Origin: Thermofilaceae archaeon
GTDB lineage: Archaea; Thermoproteota; Thermoprotei; Thermofilales; Thermofilaceae
Assembly: GCA_038861545.1 (NCBI GenBank)
Contig: JAWCCZ010000003.1
Location: 189,444 to 253,443, forward strand
Length of the DNA stretch: 64,000 bases
Direction: 5' to 3'
A model generated the notes under the pieces. The model saw only the letters and a list, made by a program, of their open reading frames with translations, was not told where the DNA came from and made no database searches. The position numbers were made by a program, and so were the translations under genes. Below, piece after piece: positions 9,626 to 53,751 of this stretch (the stretch's first letter is position 1; every line of letters starts with the position of its first letter).

Positions 9626-10713
9626 GCGTGCTGGTTTTCACGGGGACGAGGCCGGAGATCATAAAGATGGCTCCCGTGCTTAAGGAGCTCGAGAGGCGGA
9701 GTGTTGACTTCCTCTACGTGCACACGGGCCAGCACTACGACTATGAGATGAGCCTAAGGTTCATAGAAGAGCTGGAGTTGCCGCACCCGCACTTCGAGTT
9801 TAAGCTCGAGAACAGTTCGCCCGCCGCTCAGATCGGGGAAATAATGATTAAGGTGGAGAGGGCGATTGGGTCAGCGAAGAAGCTCGGGATCGCACTGGTT
9901 CAGGGCGATACAAATAGCGTGCTTGCCGCAGCGTTAACGGCACTCAGGTTGAACATAAAGGTCGGGCACGTGGAAGCGGGTTTGAGGAGCTACGATTGGA
10001 GGATGCCGGAGGAGCATAATAGGAGGATGGTGGATCACATCTCGGACTACCTGTTTGCTCCAACAGAGTTAGCTAAGAGGAACCTGGAGGAGGAGAAGGT
10101 GCTGAGGCAGGTGTACGTGACTGGGAACACTGTGATTGACGCGCTCGATATGTACTTCAGCAAAGTCGCCGAAGTGGAGGACGAGGTGTTAAGCAAGGTC
10201 AAGTTTAGCGAGTACGTGCTGGTGACTTTCCACCGCGCTGAGAACGTTGATGATCCTAAGAATCTTAAGAGCTTCATCGAGATCCTGAGGAAGGCTCCTA
10301 TCCCAATAGTTTTCCCCGTGCATCCGAGAACGAGGAGGAGGCTTGAGGAGTGGGGCCTTCTCACGCAGTTGAGCGGTTTGGATCATGTGCAGCTGCTACC
10401 TCCACAAGGCTACTTCGAGTTCATAGCCCTCTTAAAGAATGCAGTGCTCGCCTTGACGGATTCTGGAGGGGTTCAGGAGGAGGCTACTCACCCTCGAGTT
10501 AGAAAGCCGGTGCTTGTGTTGAGGAATTCGACGGAGAGGCCTGAAGCTGTCAGCGCGGGTTTCGCCAGGGTTGTCGGTTTGAACCCGAACGTGGTGTTAG
10601 CTGAGCTTGAACGGTTGGTTTCGGTTACGCCGCAGCTCCCGGAGAGGTCGCCGTTCGGTGACGGCCGGGCGGCCGAGAAAATTGTGAACGTCATTGAGAG
10701 AGAGGTTCTCTAG
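9622..10713 (+). CDS. wecB: UDP-N-acetylglucosamine 2-epimerase (non-hydrolysing)
   Basis: GTRPEIIKMAP, HTGQH, QGDT, HVEAGLRS, PEE.NR, TFHRAEN, TDSGGVQEEA, TERPE, PFGDG. Confidence 0.95.
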   Translation: MSVLVFTGTRPEIIKMAPVLKELERRSVDFLYVHTGQHYDYEMSLRFIEELELPHPHFEFKLENSSPAAQIGEIMIKVERAIGSAKKLGIALVQGDTNSVLAAALTALRLNIKVGHVEAGLRSYDWRMPEEHNRRMVDHISDYLFAPTELAKRNLEEEKVLRQVYVTGNTVIDALDMYFSKVAEVEDEVLSKVKFSEYVLVTFHRAENVDDPKNLKSFIEILRKAPIPIVFPVHPRTRRRLEEWGLLTQLSGLDHVQLLPPQGYFEFIALLKNAVLALTDSGGVQEEATHPRVRKPVLVLRNSTERPEAVSAGFARVVGLNPNVVLAELERLVSVTPQLPERSPFGDGRAAEKIVNVIEREVL

Positions 10714-11394
10714 CTTACCCTCTCCTTTCTCAGCTCTAGCACGACTGTTCCCCCACTGGTGTGGGGTTTCCCGGGGTCTGGGCACTGCACTTACCCCACA
10801 TCGTTCCCCCTTCCTATCCCTAGGTCGCGGGCTGAAATGCCCTTTAGGAAGGGTACTAGCATGGTGGATACACCGATCAGCAAGTACAGACAGACCCTAT
10901 GCTGGTGCTCCCATATGTAGAACTCCTCCGCTTCGCTTCAAGCACGTTCCCAGGCTTATAGCCAAGAACACAGTTACTCAACCTCCTTCACGATCATCTT
11001 GACTCTGTAACCCGGCATCAAATGGTATGCATATCTGTTATCCGTACCTATAATTGTTCATAAGGCTGCTAGGCTTTAAGGTTGTTCTACATTAAGAATT
11101 GTAAGAATTGTCATGCCTCTTTTTCCATAAGGATCGTTAGTCCATACATTTTATACAACACATGATAAACTTATCTGTGAAGTTCGATGCCCCTCTTCGA
11201 AGAATTCTTTATTCATCTTTAATATCATTTATCGTAAGAATATCAGAATATTTACTCTTACTCCATACAATACTCTATGAATTAAGAAGAATCAGGTACA
11301 TGCCACATAAAAGATACTACCTTAAAATATTATCAAAAATTACCAATATTATAATCGATTGTTCATTGAAAATAAGCGCTACCTCATGGTTAAA

Positions 11395-32518: not shown

Positions 32519-33268
32519 CTAGCCCAGAAGGAATCCCTTATACATTTCAATGTACTGTTGAAGTAATTCGGGGAGCTCCTTAAATCGGTGCTTTTCTAGC
32601 AGGAACCACAGAATATTACGGAGGTGTAACTGAGCTCTAAGAAGAAAGCGTATGTCGTGATTGCGCCGCATATCGGCTCCCCATCTCCTAAATGCGTCAA
32701 ATTTTTCAGACCTGTCATGGTAGGCCAAATACGCGAGTAGGGGCACCACATAGTAACCCTTTTCCCTAACGAAACATGCATAGACTTTATCTTCTCCCAC
32801 GTGAGTGCTGAGGAGTTGCCTACATTGGAGCAGTAGATCTCTGGGTACAATAGTATTGCTAAACGCAGCGAAGCTGAATCTTTTATTTCTCCACTCATCG
32901 TATGCGCTATACCGTGGGCCGTCTAATGCTGCCATCACCATACCGATAGTTTTTACTGCGAACCTTTTCATTATATTCCACCAATTGGGATATAGGTAGA
33001 CGTCGCTGTCCACGTACACAATCCACTCTGTTTCGGCAAGCTCAGCTAATTTGTAGCGAATCCTCCCGATCATGTTGTCTCTGCCTGTAAAGAGGTATGT
33101 TTCCGCTCCATGCTTTTCTGCAATTTTAAGCGTAGAATCTGTGCTCCCTCCATCGCCTACAAGAATTCTGTTTATTGGCAGTGCATGCTTGATGCAATGC
33201 AGGCAGCGATTCAGCGTCCTGGCACTATTGTACGTAACTATTAGTACATCAACTTTAGAGGCCGCCAT
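32519..33268 (-). CDS. GT2 glycosyltransferase
   Basis: VTYNSA.TL..CL, DGGSTDST, YVDSDV, GED. Confidence 0.88.
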   Translation of the reverse strand: MAASKVDVLIVTYNSARTLNRCLHCIKHALPINRILVGDGGSTDSTLKIAEKHGAETYLFTGRDNMIGRIRYKLAELAETEWIVYVDSDVYLYPNWWNIMKRFAVKTIGMVMAALDGPRYSAYDEWRNKRFSFAAFSNTIVPRDLLLQCRQLLSTHVGEDKVYACFVREKGYYVVPLLAYLAYHDRSEKFDAFRRWGADMRRNHDIRFLLRAQLHLRNILWFLLEKHRFKELPELLQQYIEMYKGFLLG

Positions 33269-33737
33269 GGAATAACATTCTATATTTTGTCTCGAAGGTT
33301 TTATAAATTTTATTTAATGCAGCCTAGTAAAAATCTCTTTGCCAAGCTATTTAGGTTTGCCTTGGCAAACATTGCATGACGTTCGTCCACATTAAGAGGT
33401 TACCGCTCTCACCTAAACCTCCTCTTGGAAGGATGTAAACTGAATAAATGCGTGAACTTAGCCCTAAGGCAAGATGGGACATCTCCAACTACAAAAGCAG
33501 TTAAAAGAAGCTGATAGATTGATTTTCTGATAAACTGGTTCTAGAAGCTAGAGGAAGTATCCCAAATCAAAGGGTGCACCAGACTTTGGTTGGAATATAC
33601 GTAACGGCCCTGATTCTGCTAAAATAAAAGCTTCTCTTAGGTAAGCACATGCATGCTTCACAGTGTAGTTACGTAATCACCTGTAGCTAGGAAATAAAGA
33701 ATCATAGTTTTTAAAAGTATAAGATGTTTTCAATTGT

Positions 33738-47193: not shown

Positions 47194-48267
47194 GTGCCGA
47201 GGGTAAGCGGTAAAGCAGGCTATATGCTAGGTTTAGTTATCGGAATAGCTATACTGGCCATCATAGTTATCTTAAGCGACCCCGCAACTGTTGCTTGGAG
47301 GATTGCCAAGGCGAAGCTTGTATACGTTGCATTAGCATGTATCTTCGACTTTGCATCAATCATATTTTACTCGTTAGCTTGGGTTTTAGCAGCGCGCGCG
47401 GTTGAAGTCGGCATCAACTTAACAGATGGTTTAATTGCCTCGATACTCGGGCTTTTCGCTGACAAGCTCGTAGCCTCCGCTTCAGCTTCTGGAGAAATTG
47501 TACGTTTAGCTTACATTAAGAGCAGGAACAGCGAAGTCAACTACACAGACCTTCTGGCCACTATAATGATTCACAGGTTCCTTTACAACATAGCCTTTAT
47601 AGCGCTTTTAGCCATCGCATCAACGGATCTGGTGTTAAGAGGGGATCTCCCTCATATGTTAATTTTTCTAGTAATACTGGCTATCATAAGCACTTTAATT
47701 GCATCCTACTTAACTTTGAAACCCGAAACCTTAAAGGGAGTTGCGCGCGCGACCGGGTCATTCGCTGAGCGTATAGCGGTGCGCTTTCTCAGCGAAAGAA
47801 AGCTTAACTTAGCAGCTAAAGCAGAGGAGTTGGTAGAAGGGCTTTCAATCTCCGTGAAAAAAGCGGCTGGAAGGAAAATCTATATGTCTTTAGCAGCGAT
47901 GCTTATGCTGGCCCAATGGATAGCAGGAGCTTTCGAGTTCAGCGTTCTCTTTACTGCTATCGGTCAGGGTATTAGCTTCTGGGTATCGCTGGTAATTTTC
48001 CCCCTTCACTGTTTTTTGACGGCTTTACCGGTCGGCTTACCAGCAGCGGTCGGAGTTACCGAAGCAGGGACTCTACTTGGCTTGATAGCTTTTGGTGTGG
48101 ACAGGCCGAGCGCAATGGCTGTAACGCTCCTAGTTAGGTTCGTGGAAGTCTGGTTTGAGACGCTTCTAGGGGTTACGGTCGCCACTCTCGTGGGGGTTTT
48201 CCAGTATGAAGCGCGAGTATTTGAGTGGATAAGGAGATTAACCTCGAGCGGTGATTCAAGTGGGTAA
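47194..48267 (+). CDS. Lysylphosphatidylglycerol synthase TM-domain (UPF0104) flippase-like membrane protein
   Basis: SGE..R..Y, P...GVTEAG, LLVRF...W, about 8 TM segments. Confidence 0.85.
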   Translation: MPRVSGKAGYMLGLVIGIAILAIIVILSDPATVAWRIAKAKLVYVALACIFDFASIIFYSLAWVLAARAVEVGINLTDGLIASILGLFADKLVASASASGEIVRLAYIKSRNSEVNYTDLLATIMIHRFLYNIAFIALLAIASTDLVLRGDLPHMLIFLVILAIISTLIASYLTLKPETLKGVARATGSFAERIAVRFLSERKLNLAAKAEELVEGLSISVKKAAGRKIYMSLAAMLMLAQWIAGAFEFSVLFTAIGQGISFWVSLVIFPLHCFLTALPVGLPAAVGVTEAGTLLGLIAFGVDRPSAMAVTLLVRFVEVWFETLLGVTVATLVGVFQYEARVFEWIRRLTSSGDSSG

Positions 48268-48805
48268 AATAGAGGTGGAAGTTAAGGCGAAGGCAAACTT
48301 AGACCGCGCTAGGAGAGCGTTATCAACGCTGGGAGCTAACCTAGTGAAAATCGAAGTCCAGGAGGATATATATTTCAACCATCCTTGCAGGGATCTACTG
48401 AAGCTAGATGAGGCTCTAAGGTTGCGGTTAAAGGAAGAGGGCGCAGAGCTTACTTACAAGGGCCCTCGCCAATCCGGTAATGAGAAAGCCAGAATAGAGG
48501 TTACCGTTAAGGTGAGCGATGCAGTTGAAATGTTAAGCCTTCTCGCGAACCTAGGTTTCAAGGAGGCCCTTAAGGTGAGGAAGCTTCGTGAAACTTACAT
48601 GCTAAATGATATCGAGGTAGCGCTTGATAAAGTCGAGGGTTTAGGAGAGTTCGTGGAGATCGAGGTCGGCGAACACGATTTAAGCAAGGCTTTCAATATC
48701 CTGGAGAAGCTGGGCGCGGGGGAGATCGTGAAAGAAACGTACGCTGAGCTGCTTCTCAAAGGCGAAAGGTTAGACAGTGGAGGCGGATGTTCGCCAACCG
48801 CCTGA
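48251..48805 (+). CDS. cyaB: CYTH-domain protein, class IV adenylate cyclase-like
   Basis: EVEVK, QEDIYF.HP.RD, DEALRLR, TYKGP, V.K.R, LD.V.GLG.FVEIE, Y.ELL. Confidence 0.88.
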   Translation: MIQVGKIEVEVKAKANLDRARRALSTLGANLVKIEVQEDIYFNHPCRDLLKLDEALRLRLKEEGAELTYKGPRQSGNEKARIEVTVKVSDAVEMLSLLANLGFKEALKVRKLRETYMLNDIEVALDKVEGLGEFVEIEVGEHDLSKAFNILEKLGAGEIVKETYAELLLKGERLDSGGGCSPTA

Positions 48806-49141
48806 GCGAGCAGCCTTTTCCACGACGTCCAGTACCTGTCCCAGAAGCCCCTTTTCCTGGAGGGAATTACAGAGTTCGCACATCGAAACTGTTCCCCCCT
48901 CTATGAGCTTCGCAACGGTTTCGTCTAGAAGATCCTTTATACCGGGGACGTTTTCAACTAACGAGCGATAGAGACCGCGCTCCATGTGGACGTACCTGCT
49001 TACCGCGCTTTGGCTAACGCCTACAAGCTTAGCGATATTTAGCTGCTTCATGCGCTTTTCTCTGTACATGTGAGTTATAAGCGCGCCCCGCATTGCCGGT
49101 AACACGTACTTAGCAAGTTTTTCGCACGGGCTTTTTAACAT
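48770..49141 (-). CDS. Archaeal HTH transcriptional regulator (PCE..AK.VLP family)
   Basis: SPCEKLAKYVLPAMR, Q..IA.L.GVSQSAVSRY...RG, C..C. Confidence 0.85.
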   Translation of the reverse strand: MLKSPCEKLAKYVLPAMRGALITHMYREKRMKQLNIAKLVGVSQSAVSRYVHMERGLYRSLVENVPGIKDLLDETVAKLIEGGTVSMCELCNSLQEKGLLGQVLDVVEKAARSGGWRTSASTV

Positions 49142-49179: not shown

Positions 49180-49404
49180 TTACCTAGATCTTAACTTTCT
49201 CTTCAGGAAGATCCTTAGTAGCTCTCTCTTACCGTTCTTCACCTTAACAGATCCGATAATTTCCATTTCCTGTAAGCGTCGCGCTATCCTCCAAGCGGAA
49301 GTATGAGGCATGCTAAGCGCACGCCGCACCTCGTAGAGATACGCGCTGCCGCCGCGCTCGGCGAGATAAGTTACAAACTTTTTCTCGTCCTCGTTTAACC
49401 TCAT
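49180..49404 (-). CDS. Small winged-helix DNA-binding protein
   Basis: L.EDE...V..L...GG...Y.VR..L.MP.TSAWR...RL...EII. Confidence 0.75.
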   Translation of the reverse strand: MRLNEDEKKFVTYLAERGGSAYLYEVRRALSMPHTSAWRIARRLQEMEIIGSVKVKNGKRELLRIFLKRKLRSR

Positions 49405-49456
49405 CGAATCCCTATACCTTGGAAGGTTTGGGTAAAAAGCGTTTTTCTAATCGACG

Positions 49457-49894
49457 TTAGACAGTTAAAACGTCGTGCACAGTTTGAAGGGCATCTGCCT
49501 TACCAACCTTAGCCGCCTCGGCGAGCGCTCTCGCAGCGTGCTCTTTTAGTACCTGCTCCACGTTAAAGCCCATCCTAGCGTACCTCTTCGCTTGCAGAAC
49601 CACTGCGAGCTCGTGAGCTAGGTTAGCTAAACAGTTTTCTAGCGAATCTTCCTCAACCTTGTTTGACGAGGTAGCGAGCTCCGGAGATGTTTTTCCCAGT
49701 TCACGAGCAACTGTAGTGTAAACAACTTTGCCGACGTCGCATCCGCTGAATGCGGCTAACTTAACCGCTATGAGGATCTCCTCGATCAAATGGGCGCCTA
49801 ACGGCTCTAACAGGCTGAACGGGATACCGAGATCAAGCCATAGATCATTAACCTTAAACTTTGAGACTTCAAGCAGCTTAGTAAATGCTTCCAC
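49457..49894 (-). CDS. Hypothetical protein
   Basis: 145-aa helical ORF downstream of tRNA-Leu on the same strand. Confidence 0.55.
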   Translation of the reverse strand: MEAFTKLLEVSKFKVNDLWLDLGIPFSLLEPLGAHLIEEILIAVKLAAFSGCDVGKVVYTTVARELGKTSPELATSSNKVEEDSLENCLANLAHELAVVLQAKRYARMGFNVEQVLKEHAARALAEAAKVGKADALQTVHDVLTV

Positions 49895-50136: not shown

Positions 50137-51111
50137 TCACTCGCTTCTCTCGTAGAAAGTTTGCCTAGCGTTTCTCAGAGTAACCACTTTTCTAACTAAA
50201 CCCCTGCGCAATAGCTCTGAAAGAGCATATCTCACCGTCCTCTCGGGTAGCATAGTTTCATCCGCGAGCTCTTTAACGCTCATCGGGCCTTTAATCTCAA
50301 GTATTTTCAGCACGAACTTGGCACTGGGCGGCATCTCAAGAAGATCGGAGGGGAACTTCTCCTTGAGTGTTTCCTTTACAGAAGGGGTTGAAAAAATTCT
50401 GACTAACCTTAGGGGTGTATCAGCCTTCCTAACTTCGACGTTGCTTTTAACGCGAGCCCGCATACCCCCATCAGCTATAGCCTCGCATGGATGCTTGCTC
50501 GATATACCACTAATTTCAATCAGGGAGGAATCGGGAACTATCAAAGGCCTCTTGGATGGATCAATGCTGTTCACGGGCAGGAGTTCTAGGACCTGCGCCC
50601 CCTCGAAAACCACTGCTCCGCCAGCTGAGAGGGCATACGCGGTAGAGCCTATGGGGGTTGCCGCTAAGACACCGTCAGCCCTATCCCTCCATACTAAATC
50701 CCCGTCCACGTAGAGCTCATAGCTCATCAGGGTAGCGCTTTTCGAAGGGAAGACCGCTATCTCATTAAGAGCATGCAGCAGGGTCTCCCCGTCAACTATA
50801 CCTTCTAGTTTGGTGTATTCAGCTATCTCGTATTCCCCCTTCTCGAGAGCCTCAAGCGCGCTGCCAAGGTCATCAACTGTAGTGGATGTGAGGTAGCTTG
50901 CTCCTCCGGAGCTCACGCCGAGTATAGGTGTACTTCGTTTTCCTAAGACTTGGATAGCGTCGAGCACATCCCTATCGTCGCCCACCACTACTACGAAGTC
51001 AGCCGAGTCCAAATTCTCAGATCTACCCATGCCGTGGGCGGTTAAAGTATCCTCTACTTCCTCAGCAGGGATAACCCCTTTACCGAACAGCACGTAGACC
51101 TTAAGCTGCAA
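50137..51111 (-). CDS. NAD kinase-like protein fused to a C-terminal winged-helix domain
   Basis: LNEIAV, ADGVLAATPIGSTAYALSAGG retained; GGDGT reads GDDRD; C-terminal MPPSAKFVLKILE..GPMSVKELA.ET.LPERTVRYAL..L...GLV; RBS GGAGGTGA. Confidence 0.88.
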   Translation of the reverse strand: MQLKVYVLFGKGVIPAEEVEDTLTAHGMGRSENLDSADFVVVVGDDRDVLDAIQVLGKRSTPILGVSSGGASYLTSTTVDDLGSALEALEKGEYEIAEYTKLEGIVDGETLLHALNEIAVFPSKSATLMSYELYVDGDLVWRDRADGVLAATPIGSTAYALSAGGAVVFEGAQVLELLPVNSIDPSKRPLIVPDSSLIEISGISSKHPCEAIADGGMRARVKSNVEVRKADTPLRLVRIFSTPSVKETLKEKFPSDLLEMPPSAKFVLKILEIKGPMSVKELADETMLPERTVRYALSELLRRGLVRKVVTLRNARQTFYERSE

Positions 51112-51154
51112 TCCTTGCTCACCTCCACAACTCGACTATGCAGTTATTGCCGGT

Positions 51155-51170
51155 AAAAGGGACTTTTTAA
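51155..51170 (+). promoter_or_regulatory. Putative BRE/TATA of the nadACX operon
   Basis: AAAAGGGAC-TTTTTAA ending about 25 nt before ATG 51195. Confidence 0.5.
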
Positions 51171-51194
51171 CTCTGGTGGCAAACCCCTTGACCG

Positions 51195-52121
51195 ATGACG
51201 GCGATCGAGAAGGTTAGAAAATTATTGGAGGGCAGGGACGCGGTACTTCTAGCTCACAACTATCAGCGCCCAGAAGTCCAAGATGCCGCTGACTACGTGG
51301 GCGATAGCCTAGAATTAACATTAAAGGCGCTCGAGTCCAAGGCCAGCATCGTAGTTTTCGCTGGCGTAGACTTCATGGCAGAGCAAGCCGCTGTGCTATG
51401 CCCCAACAAAACAGTTCTCACTCCTGAACCAACTGCGAAGTGTCCTATGGCCGCAATGCTGACCCCCGAACTAGTGAAGAAATACAGGAAGAGGTATCCA
51501 CGGGCTCCTTTCATAGTCTACGTTAATACCCTTGCCCGCGTTAAAGCTTTAGCTGACTACGTGGTGACCAGTGCGAACGCAGTTAAACTAATTTCATCTC
51601 TCGACTCGGAAATTATTCTTTTTGGTCCAGATAAAAACCTAGCTGGGTATGTTGCTGAAGTTACGGGAAAGAACATTGTGCCAGTCCCTAAGTATGGTCA
51701 TTGCCCTGTACACGAAATAATAACGCTTGAGTGCCTACTGGCCAATAAATCTGAGCACCCGAACGCGAAAATACTGGTTCACCCGGAGTGTCCACGAGAA
51801 GCGAGGCGGTTAGCCGATTTCATCGGTAGTACTGGCCAGATGGTGAAGGCAGTCTCGGAGCTAGGCGGGAGGGAGTACGTAGTAGCCACAGAGGTGGGAC
51901 TTCTCCATAGGATGCGCAAGACGGGCATAGCTGCTTACTCAGCGAGTCCTTATGCGGTTTGTGTGGAAATGAAGAAAACAACGTTGGGTAAGGTTACCGC
52001 CTCACTGCTCGAGGGCAAGAGCATAGTACGGGTACAGCCTAAAGTAGCGGAGCGCGTCAGGGGCGCGCTCGAAAGATCGTTCGAGATCTTGGGGGTAGAT
52101 ATACCATGGTTGAAGAGATAA
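51195..52121 (+). CDS. nadA: Quinolinate synthase
   Basis: LAHNYQ, GDSL, GV.FMAE, C.MA, YVNT, TS.NA, PD.NL, C.VH, HPEC, GST, TE.G, C..MK. Confidence 0.96.
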   Translation: MTAIEKVRKLLEGRDAVLLAHNYQRPEVQDAADYVGDSLELTLKALESKASIVVFAGVDFMAEQAAVLCPNKTVLTPEPTAKCPMAAMLTPELVKKYRKRYPRAPFIVYVNTLARVKALADYVVTSANAVKLISSLDSEIILFGPDKNLAGYVAEVTGKNIVPVPKYGHCPVHEIITLECLLANKSEHPNAKILVHPECPREARRLADFIGSTGQMVKAVSELGGREYVVATEVGLLHRMRKTGIAAYSASPYAVCVEMKKTTLGKVTASLLEGKSIVRVQPKVAERVRGALERSFEILGVDIPWLKR

Positions 52122-52963
52122 TATACCGGAGGATGCTGGATTGGCTGGAGGAGGATATCCCGTTCTGGGATGTTACTTCACAACTTATACCACCTGGCTG
52201 CGAAGCCCTAGCAGTCGTACTAGCTAAAGAGCCCGGAGTTTCGGCATGCATAGAAGAAGTAGCTTGCTTCCTAGAGAAGTTGGGCTTCCGAGTTAAGGTG
52301 AACGTCTACAGCGGGGAAAGTTTCGAGCGCGGCTCTACGCTGCTCGAAGTACGAGGGGATCTTAGTAAGCTGCTTCAAGTGGAGAGACTTGTCCTGAATC
52401 TCCTTGCGCACGCGTGCGGAGTGGCCACGCTCACCAGAAAATTCGTCGAGGCTGTTAGAGAAGTTAACCCTAAGGTGAGGGTCGCGGCTACTAGGAAAAC
52501 TTTACCCGGGTTAAGGTATTTCGAAAAGCGAGCCGTTGTAGCGGGCGGCGGCGACCCGCATAGGTTATCTCTCTCCGACATGATAATGATAAAGGACAAC
52601 CATCTTAAATGCTTCAGCTCCGTTAGCGAGGCTGTTAAAATGGCAAGGAAAATGGTCAGTTTCTCGGGGAAAATAGAGGTTGAAGTAACTTCCCCTGAAG
52701 AAGCCGTTGAAGCAGTTAAAGCGGGAGCCGATGTGGTTATGCTCGACAACTTCACTGTAGGGGAAGTGGTTAAAGCTCTAGGGTACCTGAGAAGGGAAGG
52801 TCTTAGAGATAGAGTGGTGGTGGAGGCTTCAGGAGGTATAACCTTGGAGAACGTGGCCGAGTACGCAAAAACTGGGGTCGATGTAATAAGCATCGGAGCA
52901 CTCACCCATTCAGCGCGCGCGCTCGACATCTCGCTTGAAGTTGTAGAGGTGAAAACTCCATGA
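52106..52963 (+). CDS. nadC: Nicotinate-nucleotide diphosphorylase (quinolinate phosphoribosyltransferase)
   Basis: EED.P..DVT, ER..LN, TRKT.PG, HR..LSD..MIKDNH, EVEV, MLDNF, EASGGI, IGALTHS. Confidence 0.96.
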   Translation: MVEEIIYRRMLDWLEEDIPFWDVTSQLIPPGCEALAVVLAKEPGVSACIEEVACFLEKLGFRVKVNVYSGESFERGSTLLEVRGDLSKLLQVERLVLNLLAHACGVATLTRKFVEAVREVNPKVRVAATRKTLPGLRYFEKRAVVAGGGDPHRLSLSDMIMIKDNHLKCFSSVSEAVKMARKMVSFSGKIEVEVTSPEEAVEAVKAGADVVMLDNFTVGEVVKALGYLRREGLRDRVVVEASGGITLENVAEYAKTGVDVISIGALTHSARALDISLEVVEVKTP

Positions 52964-53751
52964 AGGGTTTAGCGATCATTGGCTGCGGAGCCATTGGCGG
53001 GATCATCGCTAAAGCGGTAGATGACGGGCTTATTGAAGCTGAGCTATTATACCTCTTCGACGTAGATTGCCAGAAGGCGGAGCGTCTTGTTGCCAGTCTG
53101 CGCCGCCAGAAACCACGCGTCGCGTCGAGCGTCATCGAAGTAGCTGAAGACCCTAGGATCGATACCGTGGTTGAAGCTGCTAGCCAGGAGGCTGTTACCC
53201 GGTACGCTGAACAGTTGCTTAAGGCCGGAAAAGAACTGGTAGTGCTCAGTGTCGGTGCGTTGCTAAAAACCGAGATTAAGCCCTTGTTGGATAAATATTG
53301 GAGTCGCATTCATGTACCATCAGGTGCTTTAGCAGGGTTCGATGCAGTTAAAGCGTTAGCGTTAGTGGGGGTGGATAGAATCGAGCTGACAACCCGCAAG
53401 CATCCTTCAAAACTGTCTGATACACCTTACGTGAAAAGCAGGGGGCTGGATTTAAACAGCTTAGAAAAACCTACTTTGATCTTCGAGGGCACCGCTACCG
53501 AAGCCGTTGAAGCTTTCCCTCACAGTTTAAACGTCGCGGCGGCTCTAGCCCTAGTCTCGAACGCGCCGGTTCACGTTAAGGTGATCGCCGATCCGCGCGC
53601 GGAGCGGAATATTCATGAAGTAATGGTTCATTCGAAAGCCAGTACTCTGCTCATCAAGGTTGAAAACGTGCCGCATCCAGATAACCCGAGGACTAGTTAT
53701 TTAGCGGCTCTTTCCACAATCTCGCTGCTGCGTGATCTCTGTGGGCGCTGA
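52960..53751 (+). CDS. nadX: L-aspartate dehydrogenase
   Basis: GCGAIG, VEAAS, SVGAL, PSGA..G.D, TTRK.P, FP...NVAA, N.HE, NPRTS.LAALS; in operon with nadA and nadC. Confidence 0.93.
   Translation: MKGLAIIGCGAIGGIIAKAVDDGLIEAELLYLFDVDCQKAERLVASLRRQKPRVASSVIEVAEDPRIDTVVEAASQEAVTRYAEQLLKAGKELVVLSVGALLKTEIKPLLDKYWSRIHVPSGALAGFDAVKALALVGVDRIELTTRKHPSKLSDTPYVKSRGLDLNSLEKPTLIFEGTATEAVEAFPHSLNVAAALALVSNAPVHVKVIADPRAERNIHEVMVHSKASTLLIKVENVPHPDNPRTSYLAALSTISLLRDLCGR

Follow-up and report, generated by a model that had tools for sequence, protein, structure and literature searches.

NadR, the enterobacterial repressor built from helix-turn-helix (HTH), NMN adenylyltransferase (NMNAT) and ribosylnicotinamide kinase (RNK) domains, controls nadA and the niacin salvage and transport genes by the pool of NAD (nicotinamide adenine dinucleotide). 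To our knowledge, the known NAD regulators NadR, NiaR and NrtR are all bacterial. The NrtR and NiaR regulons combine nadABC with the niacin transporter NiaP, and no archaeal members of either family are described in those studies (PMC2330246, PMC2330245). RbkR is an archaeal riboflavin kinase/winged HTH (wHTH) regulator (Rodionova et al. 2017, PMC5397151). Here we analyzed a 64,000-nt stretch of DNA, called the window throughout, from a Thermofilaceae archaeon (GCA_038861545.1, contig JAWCCZ010000003.1, forward strand, 189,444-253,443); positions are those of the window unless a contig is named. The gene at 50137..51111 (-) encodes a 324-aa protein with a TTG start in which an NAD kinase (NADK)-like domain is joined to a C-terminal wHTH, as judged from the open reading frame (ORF) list, Pfam, NCBIfam and its relatives. 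The gene is divergent from nadA-nadC-nadX, and this fusion, a candidate NAD regulator, is probably a transcription factor that acts as a dimer or tetramer, senses NAD(P) to control NAD supply and derives from an NAD kinase paralogue.

In design the fusion is like RbkR. Both combine a kinase-type domain with a MarR-like wHTH and act, or would act, on a cofactor pathway in archaea; the operators, palindromic and sometimes paired, lie upstream of biosynthesis and transporter genes; both proteins occur in Crenarchaeota and Thaumarchaeota, and the RbkR regulon was found by the same comparative logic (PMC5397151). RbkR, however, has the fold of a riboflavin kinase that depends on CTP (cytidine triphosphate), with an N-terminal wHTH, whereas the fusion has an NADK fold with a C-terminal wHTH. 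RbkR is also truly bifunctional and the only RibK in 96 of 119 genomes (PMC5397151), whereas the fusion has a canonical NADK beside it and an altered catalytic loop. By the features of the RbkR class (a RibK domain, an N-terminal wHTH and, usually, the position of sole RibK) the fusion falls outside it and resembles RbkR in design only. The fusion shares with NadR the joining of an enzyme-type protein of NAD metabolism to a DNA-binding domain, but the folds of NadR (NMN adenylyltransferase and ribosylnicotinamide kinase) are unrelated, its HTH is N-terminal and it is found in bacteria only. NrtR and NiaR likewise pair an effector domain with an HTH, and their nadABC/NiaP regulons parallel the predicted nadA and major facilitator superfamily (MFS) transporter targets of the fusion. 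Their effector domains are Nudix-like (NrtR) or 3H (NiaR), with ADP-ribose or niacin as ligands, and a Pfam/NCBIfam search of the fusion returned no Nudix-like, 3H, NMNAT or RNK domain. Canonical NAD kinases (Afnk, 1SUW; Ppnk, 1U0T; the 276-aa enzyme of this genome) have in common with the fusion the two-domain fold, the NE motif, region II and the predicted C-domain dimer interface, but identity is about 25-31%, and the fusion differs by its GDDRD loop, an extra linker and wHTH, and a long branch of its own in the tree. From the comparison with RbkR, NadR, NrtR and NiaR, the fusion therefore represents a family that is new but follows a known design, an enzyme-derived sensor linked to a wHTH. 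We found no description of an NADK-derived regulator or of an archaeal NAD regulon in the literature that we could search, in agreement with an earlier sequence-only reading of this DNA, which knew of no NAD regulator on an NADK fold.

The NADK-like domain, the proposed sensor, comprises aa 1-241 (50389..51111, -), and the wHTH aa 260-322 (50146..50334, -). In Pfam searches NAD_kinase_C matched aa 115-238 (E 1.7e-22) and the C-terminal half only of the NAD_kinase N domain matched aa 31-94 (E 2e-10), both domains (PF01513, PF20143) exceeding their gathering thresholds. The wHTH was detected at aa 260-316, with HTH_20 as the best profile (E 3.5e-6; 27.3 bits vs. a cut-off of 27) and MarR_2, IclR, ArsR and TrmB as weaker ones; HTH_IclR passed its cut-off (23.2 vs. 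22), and MarR_2, HTH_5 and TrmB were slightly under theirs. An AlphaFold (AF2) model with 25 relatives as input (predicted local distance difference test score, pLDDT, 88.7) has the NADK fold, a disordered linker at residues 242-253 and a wHTH at 262-322 made of helices 262-274, 279-286 and 290-302 and strands 306-310 and 318-322. The top structural matches of this model (Foldseek) are the NAD kinases 7qvs, 1u0t and 1suw, with template modeling (TM) scores of 0.7-0.79 normalised to target; the NADK plus wHTH architecture was not found among solved structures. Close relatives of the same or nearly the same length are 95%, 87% and 86% identical to the fusion, and in a 25-sequence alignment few parts of the protein are as well conserved as the wHTH, its recognition helix region being nearly invariant. 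The Pfam matches and the model thus bear out the sequence-only reading of a 324-aa NADK-like protein ending in a winged helix.

A homodimer model of the fusion scored 0.43 compared with 0.00 for the best control. Among proteins of solved structure, 20 of 30 homodimers and 1 of 23 single chains attained this mark. Contact agreement between runs was at least 63% and partner pLDDT at least 79. The predicted interface consists of residues 156-196, which correspond to the part that makes up the NAD site in solved dimers of NADK (PMC8553519), and the positive result may for that reason only reflect likeness to those dimers.

All NAD kinases have a conserved glycine-rich loop, GGDG(T/S/N), with a presumed role in catalysis (PMC8553519). 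In the fusion the loop reads GDDRD (aa 44-48; 50968..50982, -), aligns with GGDGT of the canonical NAD kinase of the same genome, and has G44 and D46 as residues invariant in the family. The sequence-only reading had pointed to this change, with the central Asp kept, and to the retention of the NAD-binding signatures (NE, DG...TPxGSTAY..SAGG); the alignments agree on both points. The fusion keeps N116-E117 and D146-G147...T152-P-x-G-S-T-A-Y159...S162-A-G-G165, most of which are invariant in the 25 relatives: N116, D146 and Y159 do not vary, whereas E alternates with D at position 117 and T with S at position 157. The loop has the form GxD[R/K/S/G/C]x in 44 of the 44 genomic fusion members whatever their neighbours, and GGDGT was seen in none of them (0/44). 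Loss of GGDGT hence does not co-vary with linkage to nad genes, a relation that the sequence-only reading had considered; the altered loop is family-wide.

In Ppnk of M. tuberculosis, D85, N159, E160, T200 and Y202 are essential by mutagenesis, and in NAD kinase an adjacent subunit donates an Asp to the NAD site (PMC8553519). All five counterparts are present in the fusion (D46, N116, E117, T157 and Y159), and the counterpart of the subunit-donated Asp is also conserved in the fusion family; the dinucleotide pocket is therefore intact. Because every residue proven essential by mutagenesis is kept, we do not carry forward the earlier description of a weak or dead kinase, and the altered glycine loop would be the basis for a predicted loss of kinase activity. 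The same five residues favour a bifunctional protein, that is, an active NAD (or NADH/polyphosphate) kinase that also binds DNA, like RbkR, BirA and NadR, and whose substrate or product turnover, in place of plain ligand sensing, would set promoter occupancy. A few family members keep GGDG (GGDGD, GSDGD), and phosphate contact might still be possible through an Arg or Lys at the fourth position of the loop. We consider such a bifunctional protein unlikely: the loop is universal in NAD kinases (PMC8553519), yet it is altered in 44 of 44 fusions; complete genomes with the fusion have a canonical NADK as well, whereas RbkR tends to be the sole RibK of its genome; and the fusion scored far under all NCBIfam NADK equivalog cut-offs, remaining below the cut-off of each of the 18 models (best NF002984, 135.7 vs. 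326 bits).

The canonical NAD kinase of this genome, 276 aa with the motif VVVGGDGTLL, is encoded outside the window on the same contig (G000:C3, about 9894-10724). The sequence-only reading had left room for the fusion being the sole NAD kinase with no conserved link to nad genes; a second NADK is present and, as described below, the nad linkage is conserved. The fusion was found in about 145 of the 401 genomes sampled from the phylum, so the NADK plus wHTH architecture extends well beyond this genome to other archaea. A second NADK-type match is listed in every fusion-bearing single-contig genome of the sample. Two genomes show no NADK other than the fusion (G352 and G143), but they are drafts of 95% and 89% completeness and do not decide whether the fusion is ever the sole NADK. 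A protein search with the fusion returned more than 2,000 matches, the best 120 of which all combine NADK and HTH domains in a length of about 306-363 aa and come from Thermofilaceae, Thermoproteales, Nitrososphaerales/Nitrosopumilus, 'Aigarchaeota' and Methanodesulfokora. Public labels of the relatives vary from NAD kinase ('NAD(+)/NADH kinase') to sugar kinase and MarR regulator. In a quick maximum-likelihood tree of NADK domains, 25 fusions formed one group (branch length 1.15, SH-aLRT support 100) apart from archaeal and bacterial NADKs. By these sequence comparisons, the fusion is a distinct, widespread family and a paralogue of NAD kinase.

Two observations were made on the margins of this family. 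A full-length fusion (46% identity over aa 30-324) is found at locus L040, on contig CAYFYB010000002.1 labelled 'uncultured Methanomassiliicoccales archaeon', which could reflect either lateral transfer or misbinning. Three genomes (G191:C17:15166-15543, G272:C8:29383-29787 and G373:C31:20934-21320) have a third NAD_kinase_C homologue, within open frames that span about 370-390 aa; at E 1e-8 it does not match the NADK domain of the fusion, and it may represent a further architecture derived from NADK.

The divergent operon encodes quinolinate synthase (nadA, 51195..52121, +; PF02445, 2.8e-98; NF006878, 351 bits vs. a cut-off of 294), quinolinate phosphoribosyltransferase (nadC, 52106..52963, +; TIGR00078, 321.8 vs. 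198.4 bits) and, in place of nadB, L-aspartate dehydrogenase (nadX, 52960..53751, +; TIGR03855, 223.8 vs. 206.55 bits; Asp_DH_C). All three genes scored over equivalog cut-offs, and the 83-bp region between the fusion gene and nadA (51112-51194), noted in the sequence-only reading, is as described there. Adjacency of fusion and nadA recurs in six family-level lineages (f1, f4, f6, f14, f17 and f52). Within f1, the family to which the window belongs, all eight fusion-bearing genomes have the two genes in divergent orientation, and nadA is present in 8/8 fusion-bearing vs. 0/5 fusion-less genomes. The families f14, f17, f52 and f4 share the divergent arrangement; genomes of f6 have either this arrangement or a co-directional one with the fusion immediately upstream of nadA. 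Outside f1 the co-occurrence is partial: 56 Nitrosopumilaceae-like genomes (f12) have both genes at distant positions, and f22 has nadA without the fusion.

Orthologous divergent spacers share an imperfect palindrome, GGCAA-N3-TTGCC, and we searched for it with up to one mismatch within about 400 nt upstream of nadA. It was present in 34 of 52 fusion-bearing genomes but in 0 of 25 nadA-bearing genomes that have no fusion, one f6 member being among the latter; the chance expectation is about 0.012 per 400-nt region. The strongest result came from lineages in which the two genes are unlinked and nadA nonetheless has the palindrome (f12, 19/19; f7, 3/3; f59, 2/2; f57, 1/1). An f12 example, GGCAATAATTGCC, is located between nadX and nadA, and a perfect copy, GGCAATTATTGCC, occurs at L091. 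G340 (f4) has nadA and the fusion in divergent orientation with 1.5 kb between them, and its two palindromes lie 33 nt apart. The genome G275 contains a single exact copy in 1.5 Mb, upstream of nadA, and in four other f12 genomes the majority of the additional copies examined are inside genes or in a repeated element. A conserved putative operator upstream of pathway genes, as expected of an NAD-regulon factor, thus co-occurs with the fusion.

Two cases require separate mention with regard to the site. In G020, a repeated coding element that carries GGCAAAAGTTGCC occupies C1:50971, 302255, 487430 and 550764 (L147, L152 and L160; the fourth site, 550764, by 13-mer only), with identical flanks in the three fetched copies, one of them in the opposite orientation. 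It is probably a mobile-element gene, and the palindrome count of this genome is inflated because the element carries the site. In genus g2 of f1 (L227 and L228, in G238 and G214), the fusion is divergent from nadA and the spacer is without the palindrome; the two spacers have in common TAATTGCAGAGAATA and ATGCAA-N3-TGGCAG, which by sequence may be a diverged operator.

These distributions bear on two further explanations. In the first, the fusion would be an ordinary second NADK isozyme, with the wHTH serving protein contacts or non-specific DNA binding and the adjacency to nadA reflecting metabolic clustering. The annotation of relatives as 'NAD(+)/NADH kinase' or 'sugar kinase' and the many members in housekeeping contexts, e.g., enolase-prefoldin-ftsY, fit an isozyme, but the palindrome at nadA tracks the fusion even when they are hundreds of kilobases apart and is missing in the 25 fusion-less genomes, the recognition helix region is nearly invariant and the GGDGT loop is altered; we regard this explanation as very improbable. 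In the second, the palindrome would belong to another transcription factor with the same phyletic distribution, and the fusion would have a different target or role. In its favour are loci in which the site is weak or missing although the fusion adjoins nadA (f6 and g2 of f1). We regard it as equally improbable, because the association holds across distant classes (Thermofilaceae-like, Nitrosopumilaceae-like, f7 and f59), the palindrome is also present in divergent spacers shared with the fusion gene, and a dimeric wHTH protein suits a 13-bp palindrome.

In the divergent control region of the window (51112..51194), TTGCCG (51147-51152) is the sole invariant block across seven orthologous spacers and forms the right half of the imperfect palindrome. 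Candidate operator 1, TGCAGTTATTGCC (51139..51151), has two mismatches to GGCAA-N3-TTGCC and was recognized by orthologous conservation. Its end is 11 nt from a TATA-like box of nadA, CTTTTTAA (51163..51170, +; 12 nt from the end of TTGCC to TTTTTAA), and an operator-TATA spacing of 11-12 nt recurs in other linked lineages. Equivalent boxes are found in orthologous spacers. The box is placed about 25 nt before the ATG, which suggests, from the sequence, that the nadA mRNA is leaderless. A possible operator 2, TGCAATCCTTGCT (51107..51119), also has two mismatches, and a site with 1-2 mismatches recurs at this position in nine of the ten loci whose spacers are ~85 bp long. It is 32 nt (about three helical turns) from operator 1 and overlaps the Shine-Dalgarno spacer and start codon of the regulator gene, and its conservation may come partly from the coding sequence and Shine-Dalgarno spacing. 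On the other strand, a conserved A-rich tract, GGTAAAAG (51153-51160), is the predicted TATA box of the regulator itself, which would place operator 1 between this box and the regulator's transcription start; all promoter positions in the spacer are predictions of this kind.

No Rfam family (RNA element or riboswitch) was detected in 50900-51500. A repeat finder reported no inverted repeats in the spacer, because the left half-site is degenerate here. With regard to a wider regulon, three intergenic palindromes with up to one mismatch were found in this genome, none with an obvious NAD link. The sole exact intergenic GGCAATACTTGCC among them (G000:C1:263684-263696, L163) lies between divergent MatE efflux and Lon-protease-like genes and may be a chance occurrence or an extra target; the second is upstream of a 560-aa ORF. 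The third, GGCAAACATTGCA (33364-33376), has one mismatch and precedes a GT2 glycosyltransferase gene (32519-33268, -) by about 95 nt; it is probably a chance match. By eye, no sites were seen upstream of nadE or of one of the three PF01467 (CTP_transf_like) NMNAT candidates. In Nitrososphaerales, the regions upstream of unlinked fusion genes contained no autoregulatory sites.

In some genomes that lack nadA, the site was found at a transporter gene. In G292, an exact GGCAATACTTGCC is placed 86 nt upstream of an MFS transporter gene. Orthologues of this transporter are divergent from the fusion in G316, G327, G075 and G035, where the loci contain the palindrome with up to one mismatch or a shared TTGCCGG element, and a korarchaeal contig has the orthologue directly downstream of the fusion. 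The transporter is of the aromatic-acid:H+ symporter type, with a match to the SV2 family as well. NiaP niacin transporters of bacterial NAD regulons are MFS proteins homologous to SVOP (PMC2330245), and by analogy the fusion-linked transporter may be a putative niacin importer. If so, the regulon would consist of de novo synthesis in prototrophs and precursor uptake in auxotrophs. Palindrome counts over whole nadA-less genomes showed no enrichment over a reversed control.

The orthologue of this transporter in the present genome (G000:C7:4524-5771, -, L259) is 54% identical and has upstream only a two-mismatch site, GGCTATACTTGCA. We also considered pncB as a target in nadA-less genomes and rejected it. 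Its product, an archaeal-type nicotinate phosphoribosyltransferase (NAPRTase, NF006415) to which PF04095 is insensitive, is present in G298, G274, G292, G217 and G035, but in these five genomes the gene lies apart from the fusion and no palindrome precedes it.

The observed architecture, the paralogy with NAD kinase, the family-wide loop change, the gene linkage, the co-occurrence and the association of operator and fusion form the established ground for the mechanism that we propose. The NADK-like body, which keeps the dinucleotide pocket that NAD kinases form at a dimer interface, would act as a sensor of NAD(P)(H), and the C-terminal winged helices would read a palindrome of the type GGCAA-N3-TTGCC. 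Many NADKs are tetrameric, and a dimer or tetramer of the fusion could occupy one or two palindromes, with NAD(P)(H) at the interface pocket changing the geometry of the wHTH pair. Operator 1 would be positioned just upstream of the TATA/BRE (transcription factor B recognition element) region of nadA and inside the divergent promoter of the regulator. Ligand occupancy would then alter DNA binding and match nadA-nadC-nadX transcription to the NAD(P) pool, and probably that of the regulator gene as well. We prefer NAD(P)-dependent repression, with the ligand as co-repressor, which fits the window and the logic of bacterial NAD regulators. The earlier proposal of an NAD(P)-responsive factor controlling nadACX is supported by adjacency, co-occurrence and the shared palindrome at nadA; its link to nad genes stands on the same three grounds, but the family extends beyond genomes with nadA.

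Several findings weigh against control of NAD supply by the fusion. (i) The fusion is found without nadA in f3, f8, f9, f37, most of f26 and one genus of f29, and no target was found in f8, f26 and f29. (ii) Only a weak palindrome, or none, is present in f6, f26 and genus g2 of f1, though the genes are sometimes adjacent, and the sites in the window, each with two mismatches, owe their recognition to orthologous conservation and include no strong match. (iii) In f12 the palindrome is about 45 nt upstream of the TATA box, which fits activation better than repression. (iv) The palindrome counts overstate the statistical weight, because related genomes are not independent. (v) The residues essential in Ppnk are all kept, and the fusion may still be a kinase; DNA binding, the ligand, the sign of regulation and the loss of kinase activity are predicted from sequence.

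The genes on the other side of the regulator show a conserved order of their own. Two small ORFs lie downstream of it (49180-49894, -), encoding 145 aa (49457-49894) and 74 aa (49180-49404); their order beside the fusion is kept across Thermofilaceae-like genomes, with 37-87% identity in L005 and L086-L090. The 145-aa ORF had no Pfam match, and the 74-aa protein had none at E <= 0.01. A CYTH-domain protein (triphosphate tunnel metalloenzyme; 48251-48805, +) is convergent with a 123-aa HTH-like ORF (48770-49141, -), with an overlap of 36 nt.

Regulation of NAD synthesis in archaea appears to have been undescribed so far. The fusion family offers a concrete candidate with a predicted operator, targets and ligand pocket, by which archaeal NAD control becomes directly testable, and its carriers include ammonia oxidisers, which are abundant archaea of environmental importance. 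A more far-reaching and tentative possibility is that the fusion forms a tetramer with four winged helices on two operators about three helical turns apart, reads NAD/NADP or redox balance at the former active site, and controls nadA-nadC-nadX in the prototrophic and a NiaP-like importer in the auxotrophic members of Thermoproteota, the ammonia oxidisers included. It would then be an ancient archaeal NAD homeostat and the first NAD-metabolism transcription factor proposed for Archaea. If the fusion is indeed a regulator, it would be a clear case of an essential enzyme that was duplicated to become a sensor of its own substrate, and thousands of public 'NAD(+)/NADH kinase' annotations would need correction.

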